This document shows positions 42,017 through 50,927 of a DNA stretch of 64,000 bases, one piece after another. The notes under the pieces are model-generated. The model saw only the letters and a list, made by a program, of their open reading frames with translations, did no database searches and had not been told where the DNA came from. The translations under genes were made by a program, and so were the position numbers. Every line of letters begins with the position of its first letter. Position 1 is the first letter of the stretch. This stretch comes from a bacterium (GTDB lineage Bacteria; Patescibacteriota; Patescibacteriia; Patescibacteriales; GWC2-42-12), in contig JAUSGE010000014.1 in assembly GCA_030649205.1 (NCBI GenBank), forward strand, positions 28,717 to 92,716, in the 5' to 3' direction.

Positions 42017-42595
42017 ATGAATTTAACTGCCAACAAATTAAATTCGCCGCAATACGACAAATTTTTGCTTAAATCAGCGGGCGAAGATGTTTTTATCAGC
42101 GCGCAAGTTGAAATCAGACGGCCGGCTATGGTTTCTATCGGCAGCCATGTCGCCATAGACAGCGGCCTTTATTTGACCACGCGAGCCGAGATCGGCGATT
42201 ATATTCATATCGGCCCGGGCGTCCATATCATCGGCGGCCCTAAAGGATTCATAAAAATGGGACATTTTACGAATATCGCTTTGGGCGGTAAAATTTTATG
42301 CGCCTCTGATGAATTTTCAGGAAACAGTTTGATTACCGCGCCGGGCATACCGGCGAAATATACCAAAGTAATAATTAGGCCGGTGATTTTTGAACGATTT
42401 GCCAATATTTGCGCCAACGCTGTTATTTTGCCCGGGGTTACTTTAGGCGAGGGTTCAGTGGTTGGGGCCTGCTCTTTAGTGACAAAGGATACTGAGCCTT
42501 GGACAATTAATACTGGCGTTCCGGCTCGCCCCGTTAAAATAAGAAAAAAAGGCAAGATGCTTGAATACGCTAAAAAATTAGGCTACTTTAATTAA
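42017..42595 (+). CDS. hexapeptide-repeat (left-handed beta-helix) sugar acetyltransferase
   Basis: IGSHVAIDSGLYL / IGPGVHIIGG / ICANAVILPGVTLGEGSVVGACSLV hexapeptide repeats. Confidence 0.75.
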   Translation: MNLTANKLNSPQYDKFLLKSAGEDVFISAQVEIRRPAMVSIGSHVAIDSGLYLTTRAEIGDYIHIGPGVHIIGGPKGFIKMGHFTNIALGGKILCASDEFSGNSLITAPGIPAKYTKVIIRPVIFERFANICANAVILPGVTLGEGSVVGACSLVTKDTEPWTINTGVPARPVKIRKKGKMLEYAKKLGYFN

Positions 42596-42622
42596 ATAAT
42601 CGTGAAATTTTTATAAAAAATC

Positions 42623-43813
42623 ATGAAGATTGTTTTTGTTACTTCTAAATTAAATTTTTTAACCGCCGGCGGATCGGTTGAAGAGATAGATTTGATTATT
42701 AGAACCTTGGCTAATTTAGGAAATGAAGTTACGGCAGTGACGGCCTTTTCTTTAAATAATAAGATAACCGGCCCTTTGCCTTACCGGGTTTGCGAAGAGA
42801 TGATTAAATCTTATAGATTATTAAGCATTCAGGCGGGAGTGCTAAAAATTTTGAGAAAGTATTCTTCTTGGGCCGATATTTTTATCGTTGATGCCCATCT
42901 TTTTATGTATGGCGCCGGGTTTTATCGAAAAATGGGAGGCAAGGTGCCGGTAGTTGGTTTTTTTAATCAATTTTTAACTTGCTGGCCGCAGTGTGTTTCC
43001 AGCCTTTTTAAACAGCCGAAACAAAATTTTTTTCATAAGATTAAAGGAAAAATTAGATGGTGGATAGAGAAATATGTCGGCATGTCGTTAGTCGGCAATC
43101 TTGATCTCTTTGCTTTTGTCAGCCCGGCTCTGATGGCTATGTATAAAGAATTCGGCATCCGCGACAACAATAAATGTTTAGTGGTGGGAGACCCGGTGGA
43201 TATTAAAAAAATAATGGCGAAAAATAATATTACTCCCGATTCTTATCGGCTAAGAAATAAAAGAAACGGCCCCATTAATCTATTTTTTTCCAGCCGTATG
43301 TCCCCCGGCAAGGGCTTTGATATTTTAATCGCCGGCTTTTCAAAAATTAAGAATAAGAAAAATTTCCGTTTAATTTTAGGCGGTTCCGGCCATGAAGAAA
43401 AACAGGTTAAGCGGATGGTGCAAGATTTGGGATTGCAGAAGCATGTAATTTTGCCCGGCTGGGTGACTAAAGAGCAGCTTTATCGTTATTATAGCGAGGC
43501 GGATATTTTTATTCAGGCTGACTGGTGGCCGGCCGGAACTTCAATCTCTTTATATTATGCCATGGCTTTCGGCGTACCATCAATTTTGCCTGGCGGCGGC
43601 GGGCTAGAGTGGCAGGCAAAAAATTCAGCCTTGTACTTTAAATATCGCCAGCTTGACGATTTAGCGCGTAAAATTGAACAATTGGGCGCGGACTATAAGT
43701 TAAGAGAAGAAATTTCACAACAATGCTATGTTAGATTGTCTGAAGATGAAATGAATTATGAAAATAATATAAAAAAATTATATGAGAAAATGAAATTAAT
43801 TAGCGGTATATAA
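42623..43813 (+). CDS. GT-B glycosyltransferase (GT4/GT1-like)
   Basis: GT-B layout; C-terminal LPGWVTKEQLYRYYSEADIFIQ...GVPSILPGGGG. Confidence 0.55.
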   Translation: MKIVFVTSKLNFLTAGGSVEEIDLIIRTLANLGNEVTAVTAFSLNNKITGPLPYRVCEEMIKSYRLLSIQAGVLKILRKYSSWADIFIVDAHLFMYGAGFYRKMGGKVPVVGFFNQFLTCWPQCVSSLFKQPKQNFFHKIKGKIRWWIEKYVGMSLVGNLDLFAFVSPALMAMYKEFGIRDNNKCLVVGDPVDIKKIMAKNNITPDSYRLRNKRNGPINLFFSSRMSPGKGFDILIAGFSKIKNKKNFRLILGGSGHEEKQVKRMVQDLGLQKHVILPGWVTKEQLYRYYSEADIFIQADWWPAGTSISLYYAMAFGVPSILPGGGGLEWQAKNSALYFKYRQLDDLARKIEQLGADYKLREEISQQCYVRLSEDEMNYENNIKKLYEKMKLISGI

Positions 43814-45487
43814 TTGTTTTATAAAATAATAAATTTTTTATATATGCCATTGGGAGAAAAATCAGAAAAAATCGTTATTGTGGGCTTTGGCTGGGTCGGT
43901 CAGGCCAACGCGCTGGCGCTTATTAGAATGGGCTTTGAAGTTTTTTATTATGACGTCCTGGCGCCGAAATACCACTATGCGGATAAATACCTAGGGTTTT
44001 ACGAAAAAATAAAACCGCTGGATAATCTCCTGCAAGCCGACAGCCCCGACACTTGGTATGTAATATGCATTGGCGACCGGGTGAATGAAAACGGACATCA
44101 GGATATCTCTTTGATTGAGAGGGCTTTAGAATTATTGCGGCCGGCGCGGGGAAATATTATTCTGCGCTCAACGGTTTTACCGAAATATCTGAAGGGCTTG
44201 CCTTTTGATATTTATTTGCCGGAATTTCTCCATGAAATAAACGCGGTTGAAGATTGCTTAAACCCTTTTATCTTCGCTTTAGGCAGCTGGAAAAAAATTA
44301 TTTATCCGAGTTTTATTGAACAATGGGAAAAACGGGCTTACAAAGTTTTTAAAGGCGCGCCCGAAGAGGCCTCATATATTAAATATTTATCCAATATTTG
44401 GAACTCCCTGCGCGTTGCTTTTGTTAATGAGTTCGGCGACAGCATTTCCCTCCCGCAGAATAAAGAACGGCAGAAAAAAATTGCCAATATCATTGATTTC
44501 CTGTTTGATAAAAAAAGTTATCTGCGCTACGGCCAAGCCTACGGCGGCCATTGCCTGCCGAAAGATACCCAGGCTTTCTTAACCTGGAAAGAAGAAGCTG
44601 GCCCGTCGCCGATTCTGCGAGCGATCCATGAATCAAACATTTTACATCAGCAAATTACCGATGCTTACGCTCTGCCGCAATGGTTTTCTTCGTGGGATTA
44701 TGATAATTACCGCCGCGCGACCGCTTTAATCACGCGCTGGTGGCATAATTTTAATTCTTTAAAAATAATTAAGTCTACCCGGCAAATTTTAAAACCAGCC
44801 GTCAAGCTGTTTTCTCTGCGCGCCGCCAATAAATCTTTGCCCGAGATTAAAAACAACTGGGAAAAATTAGCCAAAAAAAATCCGTACTATTATGCAAACT
44901 CCGAGACTAAATCACGGCAAAAAGTAGATGAATTTGAGCTTCGCCAAAGCGGCGAAAATGATTACTTAAAATATATTTCTGGCGATGATTTGCTTCATAA
45001 ATTCTTGGGTGATTTTAAGGATAAAATCGCGCTGGACATTGGCGTTGGAGTCGGACGCATGACTGAATTTTTTAGCCAAGACTTTAAAATAATTTATGGC
45101 ATTGATATTTCGCCCAACATGCTAACTATTGCCGGCAAACGTTTATCTGCCCTCAATAACATTGAGCTAGCCGCCAGCGCGGGCGATGACATTCCCTTTA
45201 GCGATGCCGAATTTGATTTAATTTTTTCACATTTAACCTTTAAGCATTTGCCGAATACAGCCATAACGCAAAATTATTTTAAGGAAATTTTCCGGACATT
45301 AAAACCCGGCGGCTTAGCCAAAATACAGCTGCGCACCGGCGCCACGCCGCATTTTTGGCAATGGTTTTACGGCGTGTCGCTGACGCCGGAGCAAGCGTTA
45401 TCTTTGGCCGATAAAGCTGGATTACAAATAGCTAAAACAGAAATAGAAAATAGCAAGAGCTTATGGGTTTGGGTTAAAAAAATATAA
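43814..45487 (+). CDS. fusion: UDP-glucose/GDP-mannose-dehydrogenase-like N-terminal region plus C-terminal class I SAM methyltransferase
   Basis: IVIVGFGWVGQANALAL (Rossmann) ... YGGHCLPKD (the UGDH-family GGxCxxKD catalytic motif) ... C-terminal LDIGVGVGRMTEFF with LKPGGLAKIQ (MT motifs I and post I). Alternative start M at 43844. Confidence 0.6.
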   Translation: MFYKIINFLYMPLGEKSEKIVIVGFGWVGQANALALIRMGFEVFYYDVLAPKYHYADKYLGFYEKIKPLDNLLQADSPDTWYVICIGDRVNENGHQDISLIERALELLRPARGNIILRSTVLPKYLKGLPFDIYLPEFLHEINAVEDCLNPFIFALGSWKKIIYPSFIEQWEKRAYKVFKGAPEEASYIKYLSNIWNSLRVAFVNEFGDSISLPQNKERQKKIANIIDFLFDKKSYLRYGQAYGGHCLPKDTQAFLTWKEEAGPSPILRAIHESNILHQQITDAYALPQWFSSWDYDNYRRATALITRWWHNFNSLKIIKSTRQILKPAVKLFSLRAANKSLPEIKNNWEKLAKKNPYYYANSETKSRQKVDEFELRQSGENDYLKYISGDDLLHKFLGDFKDKIALDIGVGVGRMTEFFSQDFKIIYGIDISPNMLTIAGKRLSALNNIELAASAGDDIPFSDAEFDLIFSHLTFKHLPNTAITQNYFKEIFRTLKPGGLAKIQLRTGATPHFWQWFYGVSLTPEQALSLADKAGLQIAKTEIENSKSLWVWVKKI

Positions 45488-45496
45488 ATTAAAAAT

Positions 45497-45527
45497 AAAA
45501 AAAGAGCCTTCGTTTTCACGAAGGCTC
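45497..45527 (-). terminator. rho-independent terminator for the minus-strand NUDIX gene (9 bp GC-rich stem plus U-tract on the minus strand)
   Basis: gagccttcg-ttttca-cgaaggctc (45504-45527), followed on the minus strand by uuuuuuuauuuuu; lies between convergent genes. Confidence 0.75.
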
Positions 45528-45543
45528 AATTGATGAAAAGTTC

Positions 45544-46308
45544 TTAAAATCCAAATAATTCAGGATGGCGAGCGAAGAACATCATTAAAGGAGCAAGGCT
45601 TATCCCCATATGATGGATCACTCCATCCGCCGTTTTTCCGGCCGCGATTCGCCGCCGTATTTCTTTGACGGAAAGAAACTCTATTTTTCTGATATCCTCT
45701 CCGTCGCCAGCCGTTAAACCGGACGGATCATCGCTGACTGGCAACACCACTTGCGCAAATGCCACTAAGGTGCCGTTGCGTATCAATGTGGGATCTTGCC
45801 AGCAAGTTGCTGGTTCGGGGATTTCTATTTCTATTACTTCCCTTATACCGGCTTCCTCTCTCAGTTCCCTGTGAACGGCCCGTTCAACTCCTTCCTTAAG
45901 GGGAAGTTCGCGGTCAGCAGCGGTTAAAAATCCCATCGGGATCTGTCCAAAGACCAATAAACCTGGTTCTGGATGTTCCGGATCATCGGCAAACGGCCGC
46001 GCTTGCTCCAGATACGCCAGTTTAGTTGTGCCGCCCGCATCGCGCCCCCAGGCGACAATCGCTACTCCCGACTTCTGGGAATACAATAATTTGTCGTAAA
46101 TGGGTTCGCCTTTGCCGTCAAGCGCCACAACCAACTGCGCGAAACCTGAAAATCCTTCCAATTTCAGATCGCAGCCCGGAGGCAGGGTAAGCACGCTTCC
46201 GTCAGGAAGTGTAACCCTCGCCTTCCACGCGCTGGGTTGGCTAGCGATTTTTTCCGTTTGTTTGAAATCAATTCTCCGAGCTTCCGCAAACGTTACGAAT
46301 GTTTTCAA
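45544..46308 (-). CDS. NUDIX-family hydrolase (degenerate Nudix box), GC-rich relative to neighbours
   Basis: E-x7-RELREEAGI matches REUxEExGU of the Nudix box; visibly higher GC (e.g. ccgcccgcatcgcgcccccaggcgac) than the flanking AT-rich genes. Confidence 0.55.
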   Translation of the reverse strand: MKTFVTFAEARRIDFKQTEKIASQPSAWKARVTLPDGSVLTLPPGCDLKLEGFSGFAQLVVALDGKGEPIYDKLLYSQKSGVAIVAWGRDAGGTTKLAYLEQARPFADDPEHPEPGLLVFGQIPMGFLTAADRELPLKEGVERAVHRELREEAGIREVIEIEIPEPATCWQDPTLIRNGTLVAFAQVVLPVSDDPSGLTAGDGEDIRKIEFLSVKEIRRRIAAGKTADGVIHHMGISLAPLMMFFARHPELFGF

Positions 46309-46388
46309 TGTCCATCTCCTTTCTTTATGTTTTTTTTATGTTGTTTTTTTACAACACACTATCTTATTATAATAACTAATTTTTGTCA

Positions 46389-46403
46389 ACTTCCTATGAA
46401 AAA
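46389..46403. repeat. left copy of a 14-15 bp direct repeat (target-site duplication) flanking the IS
   Basis: acttcctatgaaaaa, identical to 47848-47862. Confidence 0.7.
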
Positions 46404-47847
46404 TGTAAAAATTTTATGATAATGTCCTACTAGCGTCAAATAGAAATGTCCTAACTGATGTGATAAGGTGTTTAGTTGTTTTTAATCAACTAAACATAAA
46501 ATCACATGGCTACGAACATAACTATGTCTTTACCCGAGGTAAAAAAGTATGACATTATCAAGCAAGTAATTAACAAAGAATTGAACGGCAGCCAAGCTGC
46601 CGGACTGCTGAATCTGACAACGCGCCAGATCAGGCGGCTAAAGAAAAAAGTAGATAAGCGCGGAATCAAAGCCTTGATCCACGGCAACCGAGGCAAGCCG
46701 GGCAACCGCCGCCTGCCGGCTAAAGAAAGGAAAAGAATAGCCGGCCTGATAAAACAGAAGTATCCGGATTTCGGCCCGACTCTGGCCGCGGAGAAATTAA
46801 CTGAATTGGACAAGATTGAGCGCAGCCGCGGCGCCGTTCGTTCCATCATGATCGCGGAAAAAATCTGGCAGCCCAAGTCCAAGAAAAAAGAAACCCACCG
46901 GGAATGGCGGCAGAGAAAAGCCTCTAAGGGCGAGCTGATCCAATACGATGGCTCTTACGAACATTGGTTTGAGGATCGGGGCGGAGAAATCTGCCTCTTG
47001 GCCTCGATTGATGACGCTAACAGCGAAGTCCGAGCCAGATTTGATGAACACGAGGGCGTTGAGCCGACATTCAGCTTCTGGCGGGACTACATTGAGCGTT
47101 TCGGCAAGCCCAATGCGATTTATGTGGATAAATTCAGCACTTATTCGATGAACCACAAACTGGCCAAAGAGAACCCTGATACCCTGACCCAGTTCGAACG
47201 AGCCATGACAGAACTGAATGTCGGCATCATCCACGCCCACAGCCCGCAAGCCAAAGGCCGGGTAGAAAAACTGTTCGGAACATTGCAGGACAGGCTGATT
47301 AAAGAATTAAGGCTGGCTGGCATTTCCACCATCAAAGAGGCAAATGAGTTCCTTGAAAGAGTATTCCTGCCGAAGTTCAACGCCAGGTTCATGGTTGAAC
47401 CCAGAAGCCGGGCTAATCTGCATAAGAAATTAAATGAGCAGGAAAAGAAAAAATTAGATTCCATTTTCTCGCGGCAGTACCGGAAAGTCGTGATGAACGA
47501 TTTCACCGTCAGCCACAAGAAACATTGCTATCAGCTGGAAAAAATCCAGCCGGTAACAATCTGCAAGCAAGATAGGGTTACCGTGGAAGAGCGGCTGGAC
47601 CGAACGATCCAATTCCGCCTCCGAGGCAAATATCTTAATTACAGGCTGTTGCCGGAAAAACCCAAAAAGATCAGCGACGCCAAAAACAGCTTGCAATGGG
47701 TCATCCCTAAGTCAACCGCCCACATACCGCCGGTCAACCATCCCTGGCGCCAAACAGCCAATTTAGAATATCTTAAAAAACTAACCAAAGTGTCAAAGTA
47801 GGACATTTCTAAAAAACGCCAAATAGGACATTTCTAAAAGACCTTTA
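46404..47847 (+). mobile_element. insertion sequence, IS481/ISNCY-like (single rve/DDE transposase, TGT...ACA termini, ~50 bp imperfect terminal inverted repeats)
   Basis: IR-L tgtaaaaattttatgataatgtcctactagcgtcaaatagaaatgtcctaa versus the reverse complement of IR-R gtaaaggtcttttagaaatgtcctatttggcgttttttagaaatgtcctac. Flanking 15 bp direct repeat; GC higher than the host locus. Confidence 0.8.
46506..47801 (+). CDS. DDE transposase (HTH plus rve integrase core), IS481/ISNCY-like
   Basis: N-terminal HTH (LNLTTRQIRRLKK). D (IQYDGSYEHWFE), D (AIYVDKFSTY), E (HSPQAKGRVEKLFGTLQD) are characteristic of rve-type transposases. Confidence 0.8.
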   Translation: MATNITMSLPEVKKYDIIKQVINKELNGSQAAGLLNLTTRQIRRLKKKVDKRGIKALIHGNRGKPGNRRLPAKERKRIAGLIKQKYPDFGPTLAAEKLTELDKIERSRGAVRSIMIAEKIWQPKSKKKETHREWRQRKASKGELIQYDGSYEHWFEDRGGEICLLASIDDANSEVRARFDEHEGVEPTFSFWRDYIERFGKPNAIYVDKFSTYSMNHKLAKENPDTLTQFERAMTELNVGIIHAHSPQAKGRVEKLFGTLQDRLIKELRLAGISTIKEANEFLERVFLPKFNARFMVEPRSRANLHKKLNEQEKKKLDSIFSRQYRKVVMNDFTVSHKKHCYQLEKIQPVTICKQDRVTVEERLDRTIQFRLRGKYLNYRLLPEKPKKISDAKNSLQWVIPKSTAHIPPVNHPWRQTANLEYLKKLTKVSK

Positions 47848-47862
47848 CACTTCCTATGAAAA
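47848..47862. repeat. right copy of the target-site duplication; includes the ATG of the downstream epimerase gene
   Basis: acttcctatgaaaaa identical to 46389-46403; the atg at 47856 is the start codon of the 47856..48860 CDS. Confidence 0.7.
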
Positions 47863-48860
47863 AAATATTAATTACCGGCGGCGCCGGTTTCATCGGCTAT
47901 CATCTCGCCAATGAACTTCTAAAAAACCCCGCCAATCATCTGACCCTAGTTGATAATCTTCAGCGCGGCCGGATAGATGAAGATTTTAAGGCGCTTTTAA
48001 AAAATAAGCGGGTGCAATTCATTAAAGCAGACTTAACCGACCAAAAATTTTACAAAAAATTAGACAAAAATTTTGACCAAGTCTATCATCTGGCCGCCGT
48101 CAACGGCACCAAGTGGTTTTACAAAATGCCGCAGGAAGTGTTGCGCATTAACACTTTATCTTTAATTTATATCCTTGAATGGATAAAAAGTCTTAAGAAA
48201 AAAACAAAACTCTGTTTTACCTCTTCCAACGAGGCCTACGCCGGCGCGCTCGCGTCGTTTAATAAATTGCCTATCCCAACGCCGGAAAAAGTCCCTTTAG
48301 TTATCAGTGACACTTATAATCCGCGCTGGACTTATGGCGCCACAAAATTAGTCGGAGAGCTTTTCGTTATCTTTTACGCTAAAGTATATAATTTTCCGGC
48401 GATTATTGTCCGGCCGCATAATTTTTACGGCCCGCGCGCCGGCTATGATCATGTGTTGCCCGAATGGTCGCAAAAAATTATCGCTCGCCAGGACCCGTTT
48501 ACTATTTGCAGCCCGAAAGAAACCAGAACCTTCTGCTATATCACCGACGCGGTCAAAGCCATGCGAATGCTTATGGATTCATCAATAACCGATAACCAGC
48601 CGATTGAAACCGTCCATATCGGCGCCAGCGATGAAATTACCATGGAAAAATTGGCGGAGAAGATGTTTGAAGCGGCCGGCTGGAAGCCAAAAAAAATAAT
48701 CAGCCAGCCCTCGCCGGCAGGCAGCGTTAAGCGCCGCTTGGCTGATATAACAAAAATAAAAAAATTAATCGGCTGGCGGCCGGAAACAAAATTGGCGGAC
48801 GGGCTGAAAAAAACTTTTGAGTGGTACACGGTTCATTCTAAAAAATATGGTAAAGCTTAA
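47856..48860 (+). CDS. NAD-dependent epimerase/dehydratase (extended SDR)
   Basis: [16 protein letters not shown]; YGATKLVGE (YxxxK). Confidence 0.75.
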   Translation: MKKILITGGAGFIGYHLANELLKNPANHLTLVDNLQRGRIDEDFKALLKNKRVQFIKADLTDQKFYKKLDKNFDQVYHLAAVNGTKWFYKMPQEVLRINTLSLIYILEWIKSLKKKTKLCFTSSNEAYAGALASFNKLPIPTPEKVPLVISDTYNPRWTYGATKLVGELFVIFYAKVYNFPAIIVRPHNFYGPRAGYDHVLPEWSQKIIARQDPFTICSPKETRTFCYITDAVKAMRMLMDSSITDNQPIETVHIGASDEITMEKLAEKMFEAAGWKPKKIISQPSPAGSVKRRLADITKIKKLIGWRPETKLADGLKKTFEWYTVHSKKYGKA

Positions 48861-48971: not shown

Positions 48972-50927
48972 ATGTTAAAAATATACCTAGCTGATCTCGT
49001 GTACGATACTATCAAAACAAACTACACGGTTCCTCTTAATATTGCCTATATCGCGGCATTGCTTGAAAAAAGATTCAGCAAACAAGTCAAGATTATTCTT
49101 TTTAAGTATCCAAAGGAACTTGAAAAAGCCATATCTAAGGATCCTCCGGACATTATCGGGCTTAGCCATTATAGTTGGAATTCTAGGCTTAGCCTTCTTT
49201 TTGTTAATATGGTTAAAAGGTTGAACCCAAAGGTAATAACAGTAATGGGCGGACCAAATATAAGAACTGAACCATCTGGCATAAAGGCGTTCTTGAAAGC
49301 AAACCCGAATCTTGATTACTACATTATGTTTGAGGGGGAAGAGTCTTTTGCGGACTTGGTAGGAGGCATCCTCAACGGAAAAGTAAGACCAACCCCAAAT
49401 AGTTGCGCGACAATTATTGGCGGAAAACTGATTTATTCTCCCGTTGATTTTATCAAGAAACCAAAAGAGATTGACCTGCCAAGCCCATATCTTACAGGCT
49501 GGCTTAACAAATTTCTTAAGGACCCGAATATGATCCCCTTGCTTGAAACAAACAGAGGTTGCCCGTTTGGTTGTTTATATTGCGCCTGGGGAGTTACTAC
49601 ATTGTCAAAGGTAAGATTGAGGGATCTAAGCGTGATCAAAAAAGAGATCGAATATGTTGCTGAAAATTCCGCGGGTCAGGTAAAATGGATTTTTTGCGAC
49701 GCTAACTTTGGATTATTTGATCGTGATGTTGAAATTGCCAAGATTATAAGAAATGTCATGGACAAAAAAGGATTTCCAGTATTATTGGATCTTTACCATT
49801 CTAAAAATACGAGTGAAAGAAATATTGAGATAGCCAAGATAATAAAAACCCAATCGGGATATATTGCAATCCAGTCTTCTGACCCCTGCGTTCTTAAGTG
49901 TTGCGGCAGAGGCGGTATTAACATGGATCATATAAAAGCTCAGATTAAGTATTATAAAGATAATAACATGGAAGTTGGCACGGACATTCTTATCGGGCTT
50001 CCCGGAGAAAGCGTAAAAAACCACCTGACTTCCTTAAAGGACTCATTTGATATCGGATTTGATGATATTCGCCCGTATAATATCCGGCTTTTGCCTGGGT
50101 CAAAATATGAAGACGATACGCGCAGAAAGGAATATGCAATAAAGACAAAATTCAGGCCAATTTTTGGCGCATATGGCATCTATGATGAAAAGATTGTTTT
50201 TGAGATTGAGGAATCGGTCAGAGCTACAAAAGACATGTCCGAAAAAGAGCTTAACAATTTTAAGATTCATCATTGGCTGATCTATTTTGCCTGGAATGTA
50301 GGAATGTTTAAACCCATTCTCAAATTTGCTCAAAAAAGAGGCGCCAACCCCGGAGAAGTATTGGATAAACTCGCACATTCCAAGGATCCATCGATAAAGA
50401 GAATATTTGATTATATGAAGAATAAATCAATGGAAGAATGGTTTAATACAAAAGAGGATATGATCAAATTCTATAAGAGCCGGAGGAACTACGATAAACT
50501 CGTAAACGAATTTGTAAAACTAAACTTTTTGTACATCGCGCTGGTTTATAAAGATGCCGGTATATTAACATCAATCCAAAATGAACTAGTCAGAATCCTA
50601 AGAGAAGAATACCGTATTGGAGGTATATTATTTGACAAAACGCTAGACTTGACAGAAAAATTGGCCTGCAAGGACTTATTGCAAGGGGATACCAGTAAGA
50701 GAGTGAAATATCCCGGAGAGGTTGTCTCTTTAATAATAAATAATCCCGAGCTTTTAAAAAAACAAAGTGTTGAAGTTGAGATTTACAGGCCTAAGAAGTA
50801 TGATTCTTTATGCCGGTTTTATTTAATGCCTAATGGCAAAAAGGACATTTCTTTAAAAAATTTCACAAGGTTTTTGGAGAATGACGGAATGTTTACATTG
50901 AGGAACAAGATTAGATTGGTTAGTTAG
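48972..50927 (+). CDS. B12-binding-domain radical SAM protein with ~200 aa C-terminal extension (651 aa)
   Basis: MGGPNIRTEP region; TNRGCPFGCLYCAWG (Cx3Cx2C); longer than the ~450-480 aa paralogs. Confidence 0.8.
   Translation: MLKIYLADLVYDTIKTNYTVPLNIAYIAALLEKRFSKQVKIILFKYPKELEKAISKDPPDIIGLSHYSWNSRLSLLFVNMVKRLNPKVITVMGGPNIRTEPSGIKAFLKANPNLDYYIMFEGEESFADLVGGILNGKVRPTPNSCATIIGGKLIYSPVDFIKKPKEIDLPSPYLTGWLNKFLKDPNMIPLLETNRGCPFGCLYCAWGVTTLSKVRLRDLSVIKKEIEYVAENSAGQVKWIFCDANFGLFDRDVEIAKIIRNVMDKKGFPVLLDLYHSKNTSERNIEIAKIIKTQSGYIAIQSSDPCVLKCCGRGGINMDHIKAQIKYYKDNNMEVGTDILIGLPGESVKNHLTSLKDSFDIGFDDIRPYNIRLLPGSKYEDDTRRKEYAIKTKFRPIFGAYGIYDEKIVFEIEESVRATKDMSEKELNNFKIHHWLIYFAWNVGMFKPILKFAQKRGANPGEVLDKLAHSKDPSIKRIFDYMKNKSMEEWFNTKEDMIKFYKSRRNYDKLVNEFVKLNFLYIALVYKDAGILTSIQNELVRILREEYRIGGILFDKTLDLTEKLACKDLLQGDTSKRVKYPGEVVSLIINNPELLKKQSVEVEIYRPKKYDSLCRFYLMPNGKKDISLKNFTRFLENDGMFTLRNKIRLVS

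Follow-up and report, generated by a model that had tools for sequence, protein, structure and literature searches.

A promoter-edge insertion pattern in a Patescibacteria clade of IS1202-family insertion sequences, seen from a copy inserted at the start of an epimerase gene

The IS1202 family of insertion sequences (formerly ISNCY) was defined in 2022–23 and includes ISKpn21, ISRel26 and ISLad2. Its signatures are TGT/ACA tips, a transposase with HTH plus DDE domains, a DD pair placed between the first and second catalytic D, a Q located seven residues past the catalytic E, and extra binding sites near the ends; its members form classes with target-site duplications of 5–6, 15–17 and 27–28 bp (10.1101/2022.12.17.520857; PMC10132070). 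For the ISAba32 subgroup, it has been concluded that the nucleotide sequence alone is not what is recognized (10.1101/2022.12.17.520857). For the members with long duplications, Harmer and Hall reported no conserved target, and they lacked independent copies. Here we describe an insertion sequence of this family in a 64,000-nucleotide stretch of a Patescibacteriota genome of the GWC2-42-12 lineage (assembly GCA_030649205.1, contig JAUSGE010000014.1, positions 28,717 to 92,716; hereafter the window), in which it lies directly ahead of an SDR epimerase gene and beside the predicted promoter of a divergent NUDIX gene, together with the insertion sites of its relatives.

Taken alone, the window records an ordinary event, the landing of an insertion sequence ahead of a gene. 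What matters is the pattern in the clade: a single-protein transposon that inserts at a fixed distance from, and in a fixed orientation to, –35 boxes and leaves the core promoter intact. The element in the window adds a member to the IS1202 family, and the way its clade targets promoter edges seems to be a new form of the family's site-specific behavior. No report of such a preference was found in either of the IS1202-family papers or in the wider literature searched, the coverage of which was incomplete. We consider our explanation as a whole, comprising the identity of the element, promoter-edge targeting, the window copy and its consequences, to be likely.

Promoter-edge insertion sites

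A homology search returned about 8,000 relatives, of which the named ones come from Patescibacteria (candidate phyla radiation, CPR), including Falkowbacteria, Yonathbacteria and Parcubacteria. The contigs of many of them are about 1.45 kb long, as is commonly seen with multi-copy repeats. From the DNA around eight lineages, whose transposases are 78–92% identical to that of the window, we collected 29 distinct, independent right flanks from Patescibacteria metagenomes. The sequence TTGAC begins 15 nt from the right tip in 15 of the 29 and 16 nt from it in another 4 (19/29 in total), and a single other TTGAC occurs within the first 60 nt of these flanks (binomial P about 2e-37). All 16 of the TTGAC flanks that are long enough carry a TAnnnT –10 box, with a 17-nt spacer in 15 and an 18-nt spacer in one; in the control, the same box stands in register behind 14 of the 136 TTGAC sites of the window. 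The TG of an extended –10 element is present in 9–10 of 14 flanks. Additionally, five more flanks have a degenerate –35 hexamer at offset 15 (TTGATA, TTGCCT, TTTACA, TTCAAT and TTTTCT), with TAnnnT exactly 17 nt further on.

In the usual arrangement, the element has its right end toward the promoter, and its transposase gene is oriented along the promoter direction. The next called gene is usually co-directional with the element, for example rpsT in relative L010, and downstream of those targeted promoters that have no co-directional called gene, neither a tRNA gene nor an Rfam gene was found. Seven pairs of left and right flanks match over exactly 15 bp, representing the duplications of the relatives, and the duplicated 15 nt have no conserved base. 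The segment copied on insertion extends from about –51 to about –37. Because the right end lies beside the promoter and the insertion takes place at its upstream edge, the core promoter survives. Thus, the Patescibacteria clade inserts non-randomly at the upstream edge of sigma-70-type promoters. The possibility that TTGACA is a part of the element was considered and rejected, since the intervening 15 nt are derived from the target and are duplicated on the left.

The same promoter-edge rule holds in the window copy, for the divergent NUDIX promoter. The plus-strand sequence TGTCAA at 46384–46389, which is TTGACA on the minus strand, adjoins the left copy of the duplication, so that the duplication touches the edge of the –35 hexamer exactly, as in the clade. 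The right flank of the window copy holds no promoter. The motif TTGACA-(16–18)-TAnnnT occurs six times in the 64 kb, counting both strands, and the probability that a random insertion would fall 14–16 nt from one such motif is about 3e-4. The element would have targeted the NUDIX promoter in reverse orientation. Because the ATG of the epimerase gene follows just 6 nt downstream of the NUDIX –35 box, the duplicated 14 nt include the epimerase start codon. The hit on the epimerase would therefore be a side effect of promoter-edge targeting within an 87-bp divergent intergenic region, with the gene itself not being the target. The earlier note on this DNA, which had been made from the letters of the sequence and described an insertion at the start codon region of an epimerase gene, had missed this point: the site was probably not aimed at the epimerase gene, and the duplication abuts the NUDIX –35 box. 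The NUDIX gene itself starts with TTG at 46308, with AAAGGAG ahead of the start.

Several further features of the relatives deserve description. Two tandem pairs were observed, L019/L020 (ERZ17912254 NODE_85765) and L049/L050, in which the elements are exactly 15 bp apart. One of the spacers is the duplication found beside the TTGACA promoter in L026, and the other is the left flank of L050. These arrays fit repeated use of one promoter-edge site that is regenerated with each insertion. In L029–L033 (the P0002 lineage, with a transposase 92% identical to that of the window), the right tip CCTTGACA is a perfect –35 hexamer, TTGACA, which lies 15 nt from the TTGACA of the target after insertion. 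L021, L022 and L023 are missing the outer part of the left end: the inner TAGAAATGTCCTA block is not preceded by TGT...GATAATGTCCTA, and one replacement sequence is common to all three; they may represent a 5'-truncated or recombined variant. The element of L034 (JGI 3300005645) lies among MULE/Transposase_mut and rve_3 transposase genes and that of L049 near an ISL3 transposase gene, surroundings that look like local clusters of several insertion sequences. The right-tip pattern of the clade can be written as TAGGACATTTCT-N5-9-CTTKACA, and a scan of viral contigs with the right-end pattern found nothing. Finally, the right flanks of L005–L053 provide a picture, drawn from sequence alone, of Patescibacteria promoters: TTGACA, a 17-nt spacer, a frequent TG, and TAnnnT. 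The clade thereby offers a free map of real promoters (TTGACA-17-TGnTAnnnT) in these uncultivated bacteria.

The window element, its family and its locus

The assignment to the IS1202 family is based on transposase homology, the DDE-DD-Q signature, the TGT/ACA tips and the internal binding-type repeats. The transposase scores 392 bits against the NCBIfam model NF033594 ("ISNCY_2", shared by ISKpn21 and ISRel26), well above the cut-off of 250. Three plasmid homologues that we fetched (ISKpn21, ISRel26 and an Acinetobacter ISNCY) match the same model at 479–497 bits, with the ISKpn21 and ISRel26 transposases alone at 488–497 bits, and they are 34–37% identical to the window protein in full-length alignment. 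The residues D148, D169-D170, D208, E254 and Q261, the last located seven residues past the E, are invariant across both alignments. A tblastn search against plasmids returned thousands of ISNCY transposases at 35–40% identity (E = 1e-56 to 1e-77), including ones annotated as ISKpn21, ISRel26 and ISLad2. Therefore, of the two affiliations proposed in the earlier note, IS481/ISNCY-like, the ISNCY (now IS1202) part stands and the IS481 part does not. An IS481 element, with the 15-mer at its ends being a genomic motif rather than a duplication, can draw on a weak match to the IS481 model NF033577 (E = 3.6e-24) and on the TGT tips common to the IS481 and IS3 families (10.1101/2022.12.17.520857). 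However, the score of 85.8 bits is far under that model's cut-off of 224, Q261 occupies the position at which IS481 and IS3 carry K/R, and in the relatives the 15 bp duplicated next to these tips differ. The window contains just two copies of the 15-mer, ACTTCCTATGAAAAA (46389–46403 and 47849–47863), which lie precisely at the tips, and no extra matches were found in the window when up to two mismatches were allowed (shuffled mean, 0.37). It is thus not a common motif, and this alternative is refuted by these observations to the extent that we assign it almost no probability.

The window element appears to match the long-duplication, ISTde1-like group. The placement follows from duplication length and identity level, with ISTde1 itself known by description: agreement with the ISTde1/ISCARN entries (PMC10132070 Table 7) extends to the size, the transposase length, the long duplication and the level of identity to ISAjo2-type proteins (approximately 35%). 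The 5–6 bp duplication located 5–6 bp from the XerC arm, which defines the ISAba32 subgroup, was not found here; the duplications are 14–15 bp, and the flanks carry promoter hexamers, not dif-like sites. The closest plasmid-borne relative, on Bradyrhizobium p195_2 (40% identity), is frameshifted, has an indistinct right end and is uninformative on target choice.

The earlier note ascribed one DDE (rve) transposase to the element. The single open reading frame and, in the alignment, the DDE triad bear this out; for the rve label Pfam gives no meaningful match, recognizing HTH_29 and HTH_28 at the N-terminus and rve_3 only at E = 0.043. An AlphaFold model built from 19 sequences with identities of 74% or more, a shallow alignment, reached a mean confidence score (pLDDT) of 49.6 and was confident only over residues ~10–120, which form two helical bundles. 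Among solved structures, a single-sequence search gave nothing meaningful, and a profile search gave TnsB as the sole match (E about 2e-4), over the HTH region.

The comparison of the two ends identifies a real, intact insertion sequence, with the TGT/ACA tips and the imperfect inverted repeats of about 50 bp described before (Table 1). The left boundary remains at 46404, and the right boundary moves from 47847 to 47849, where the ACA tip ends. The left and right inverted repeats (IRL and IRR) match at 21 of the 30 terminal nucleotides without gaps. Both ends share the tip TGTAAA and two AATGTCCTA blocks, and TAGAAATGTCCTA is perfect at its IRL position (+) and at both IRR positions of Table 1 (–); the binding blocks are conserved in all the relatives compared. 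The two AATGTCCTA repeats of each end presumably serve as binding sites for the transposase, which would cleave at the TGT/ACA tips and then join them to the target DNA across a stagger of 14 bp here, compared with 15 bp in the relatives.

The duplication is a perfect repeat of 14–15 bp. Position 47849 is the terminal A of the ACA tip and also the first base of the 15-mer that had been counted previously. Since every relative keeps this A in the element, we favor a duplication of 14 bp, CTTCCTATGAAAAA. Both counts lead to the same predicted empty site (...TTTTTGTCAACTTCCTATGAAAAAAATATTAATTACC...), whose form usable for read mapping is TTTTTGTCAACTTCCTATGAAAAAAATATTAATTACCGG. The Logan assembly of run SRR13727527, which is independent, is base-for-base the same over 42277–48434, including both junctions, so the junctions are not an artifact of binning or scaffolding. 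The Logan contigs of this run break inside the epimerase gene, one stopping at 48434 and the next beginning at 48676, and are otherwise identical to the window; the break at 48435–48675 may be due to strain heterogeneity or a coverage problem. The element is an intact, single-copy insertion sequence. The further copies for which a search had been suggested were not found in the window, and the exact transposase sequence is on record at this locus only. Rfam gave no match within 45400–48000.

The GC content of the element (46.9%) is indeed higher than that of the rest of the window (40.5%), as noted earlier. Nevertheless, 7% of windows of equal size reach this value, and the neighboring NUDIX gene has 51%; the element is higher in GC without being an outlier, and we dropped GC content as evidence for a recent arrival. 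In three relatives the GC of the element lies within about 2 points of the host, and the larger gap in the window copy hints, weakly, at recent arrival.

In the syntenic glycan clusters of the closest relatives, L011, L012 and L013, a dehydrogenase/methyltransferase fusion gene is followed 20–35 bp on by the epimerase gene, and the NUDIX gene is absent. The homologue of the fusion gene lies at 43814–45487 in the window. The direct adjacency of fusion and epimerase genes in these relatives indicates that the NUDIX gene and the element are both additions in this lineage. The NUDIX gene, with a GC content of 0.51 vs 0.405 for the rest of the window, appears to have been inserted earlier, in this lineage specifically, separating two genes that had once been co-transcribed. 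A GC-rich hairpin at 45497–45531 (GAGCCTTCG-loop-CGAAGGCTC), flanked by runs of A and T, is found between the methyltransferase-fusion and NUDIX genes, which are convergent, and resembles a terminator acting in both directions. Searches for exact matches to the epimerase, NUDIX and radical-SAM proteins found sample SRR13727527 only.

Table 1. Features of the insertion locus in window coordinates
Feature	Position	Strand	Details
NUDIX-domain gene	45544..46308	–	divergent from the epimerase gene; core promoter spared by the insertion
Predicted sigma-70-type NUDIX promoter	46361..46389	–	–35 TTGACA 46389–46384, 17-nt spacer, –10 TAAGAT 46366–46361; consensus match; edge abuts left duplication copy
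Candidate promoter-like sites, left junction	46383..46423	+	TTGTCA-18-AAAAAT and ATGAAA-16-GATAAT, pointing into the element; consensus matches only
Target-site duplication, left copy	46390..46403	.	CTTCCTATGAAAAA, 14 bp (15 bp counting 46389)
Remnant mini open reading frame	46396..46419	+	MKNVKIL and stop, 7 codons; left start-codon copy reading into IRL; read from sequence
IS1202-family insertion sequence, complete	46404..47849	+	1,446 bp; TGT...ACA tips, TGTAAA...TTTACA; relatives have the same tips and 1,445–1,448 bp
IRL	46404..46455	+	tip TGTAAA; putative transposase-binding blocks, outer AATGTCCTA 46421–46429, inner TAGAAATGTCCTA 46441–46453
Transposase gene	46506..47801	+	sole open reading frame of the element, 431 aa; N-terminal HTH domains and DDE core (D148, D169-D170, D208, E254, Q261)
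IRR	47799..47849	–	TAGGACATTTCTA twice (47799–47811, 47824–47836); tip TTTACA 47844–47849
Target-site duplication, right copy	47850..47863	.	CTTCCTATGAAAAA; holds the epimerase ATG (47856–47858)
SDR NAD-dependent epimerase/dehydratase gene	47856..48860	+	intact, 334 aa; starts 6 nt past the element tip; 71–75% identical full-length to L011–L013

Target choice and consequences for expression

We propose that the transposase captures promoter DNA that is marked or bent by bound RNA polymerase holoenzyme, in analogy to the capture of XerCD sites by the ISAba32 subgroup. We regard this as plausible, close to but not quite reaching what we would call probable. A promoter read as a unit is favored because the –10 boxes stay in register beside degenerate –35 hexamers, and because the XerCD targets of the ISAba32 subgroup also vary in sequence. 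The fuller statement, that a widespread Patescibacteria clade of the IS1202 family lands on active sigma-70-type promoters by recognizing polymerase-bound, sigma-bound or bent DNA and not a DNA word, is offered tentatively, as possible and no more than that. Alternatively, the transposase may read the DNA directly, binding a TTGACA-like hexamer and inserting one and a half helical turns away, in which case the –10 boxes would mark the intergenic insertions that survived. TTGACA resembles the right tip of the element, TT(T/G)ACA (usually TTTACA, and TTGACA in the P0002 lineage), and the binding repeats contain GGACA. IS30 and IS911 are examples of insertion beside sequences resembling an element's own inverted repeats. 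Furthermore, about 90% of the TTGAC sites in the window have no –10 box, and insertions at them would mostly be intragenic; purifying selection against intragenic insertions, instead of recognition of a promoter complex, could thus account for the –10 association. Conversely, five poor –35 hexamers (TTCAAT, TTTTCT, TTGCCT and others) keep the –10 box in exact register, all 16 sufficiently long TTGAC flanks have the box with no surviving insertions at non-promoter intergenic TTGAC sites, and the published conclusion for the ISAba32 subgroup is that sequence alone is not recognized (10.1101/2022.12.17.520857). Direct reading is a serious possibility, which we find somewhat doubtful on balance.

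Apart from the role that selection may have played, several observations weigh against our explanation. The right flanks of L027, L034 and L047 show no promoter. Only seven duplications could be paired, because many contigs are short and chimeric across the repeat, and their flanks are often mismatched. The subgroup is assigned from duplication length and identity level. Protein-guided scans of genome and metagenome contigs revealed no empty-site allele; they returned orthologues 71–75% identical, or far weaker matches. The window copy itself is left-end proximal (1 of 23 distinct left flanks), with an offset of 14 nt and a duplication of 14 bp, and its NUDIX promoter is predicted from a consensus match alone. 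Once a landing in the short divergent intergenic region is given, chance adjacency would amount to a few per cent rather than 3e-4. It might therefore be that the preference of the clade is real, and that the window copy is an off-target or random insertion, with the adjacency to the NUDIX –35 box a coincidence of the compact 87-bp region. It is oriented opposite to all 19 relatives that lie beside a promoter, none of the 22 other distinct left flanks has TTGAC at offset 14–16, its offset and duplication are 14 and not 15, and off-target events do occur, as the three flanks without a promoter indicate. Nevertheless, the rarity of the motif makes such an adjacency improbable genome-wide, the duplication abuts the hexamer edge exactly, and occasional capture in reverse is plausible because the element tips are near-identical (TGTAAA). 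We consider coincidence unlikely. A different suggestion is that the insertion is adaptive, rewiring or switching a surface-glycan operon made up of the epimerase and radical-SAM genes. IS1202 was first found beside a pneumococcal capsule locus, and insertion sequences rewire capsule and O-antigen loci. The polysaccharide cluster of the window comprises genes for a glycosyltransferase, a UDP-glucose dehydrogenase/methyltransferase fusion, the SDR epimerase and a radical-SAM protein, and a Capsule_synth gene; the epimerase reading frame is intact, with its translation start preserved by the duplication. The discussion in the Siguier preprint links family members to streptococcal survival in blood and to colistin dependence (10.1101/2022.12.17.520857). 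However, the locus is carried by one sample only, and intactness is equally expected for a very recent insertion that is neutral or mildly harmful. An adaptive origin seems to us distinctly unlikely, even more so than coincidence.

Whichever way the site was chosen, the epimerase gene is cut off from any upstream promoter, because only 6 nt separate the element tip from the ATG; here the earlier note was right. The duplication restores positions –6 to +8, so the translation start of the epimerase is kept. The transposase gene runs in the direction of the epimerase gene and stops 54 nt ahead of its ATG. The epimerase would have to be transcribed by read-through across this co-directional element, and the radical-SAM gene (48972–50927) is probably transcribed through the element in the same way; in this genome the epimerase and radical-SAM glycan genes are thus predicted to be co-transcribed with the transposase. 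Candidate sources of read-through are TATAAT at 46368–46373, in the old upstream region, and the promoter-like sites at the left junction (Table 1). Read-through or an outward promoter borne by the element had been put forward before. The dependence on transcription of the element can be retained as our interpretation, and an internal outward promoter cannot, as no promoter-like or terminator-like site is predicted on the plus strand within the element past the left junction. A –35 box at the right tip, acting as an outward hybrid promoter for the epimerase, was rejected, since the matching –10 box would fall downstream of the ATG. The NUDIX core promoter should be intact after the insertion. 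The intact, full-length epimerase reading frame fits either a recent insertion or continued expression.

Comparison with known systems

The elements most similar to ours by description are those of the ISTde1 subgroup (ISTde1, ISCARN53/62/63 and others). They share the size (1.33–1.40 kb, vs 1.45 kb here), a single transposase of about 394–432 aa, TGT/ACA tips, imperfect inverted repeats of 24–29 bp with an internal binding site, and a long duplication, which is 15 bp in our relatives and 15–17 bp in the subgroup. The differences are that Patescibacteria are not among the listed phyla of the subgroup, that the duplication is 14–15 bp here versus 16–17, and that strict promoter-edge targeting contrasts with the published lack of a conserved target for long-duplication members. 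Promoter-edge targeting would answer the open question of both IS1202-family papers as to what these members target, if they target anything. It would also give mobile DNA a safe-site strategy in genomes that are very small and densely packed with genes, and such an element could serve as a compact tool with which cargo is placed immediately upstream of promoters.

The ISAba32/ISAjo2 subgroup has a homologous transposase (34–37% identity) with the same DDE-Q signature, and its mode of insertion is similar in being oriented and distance-fixed, with a duplication that abuts a functional protein-binding site and with repeated and tandem insertions. In that subgroup, the target is a XerCD site (dif/pdif), the left end is proximal and the duplication is 5–6 bp. 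Conversely, in the clade described here the target is the –35 edge of a promoter, the right end is normally proximal and the duplication is 15 bp. The IS481 family resembles the element in its HTH-DDE transposase, TGT tips and weak profile similarity; it differs in that the model cut-off is failed, in the Q rather than K/R seven residues past the catalytic E, and in the two subterminal binding repeats present here.

TnsB of Tn7 and CRISPR-associated transposons (CAST) is comparable in its TGT/ACA tips, several binding repeats per end and DDE core, and the TnsB match found in the structure search fits the published link to Tn7. In contrast to those systems, our element has a single open reading frame and no TnsA, TnsC, TnsD or guide-RNA partner. 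Any selection of the target must be the work of either the transposase or a host factor.

The yeast retrotransposons Ty3 and Tf1 integrate at promoters through contacts with the transcription machinery. The outcome is alike: the elements integrate at a set position just ahead of the regions where transcription starts, and coding sequence is spared. Ty3 and Tf1 are, however, unrelated long terminal repeat (LTR) retrotransposons that rely on eukaryotic factors; the resemblance is functional only, and guidance by a protein is hypothetical for the elements described here. If a polymerase-marked promoter is indeed the landing pad, the clade would parallel, in bacteria, the way Ty3 and Tf1 direct their integration to promoters, and would provide the second case in the IS1202 family, after the XerCD sites, of a lone transposase reading a protein–DNA complex of the host.

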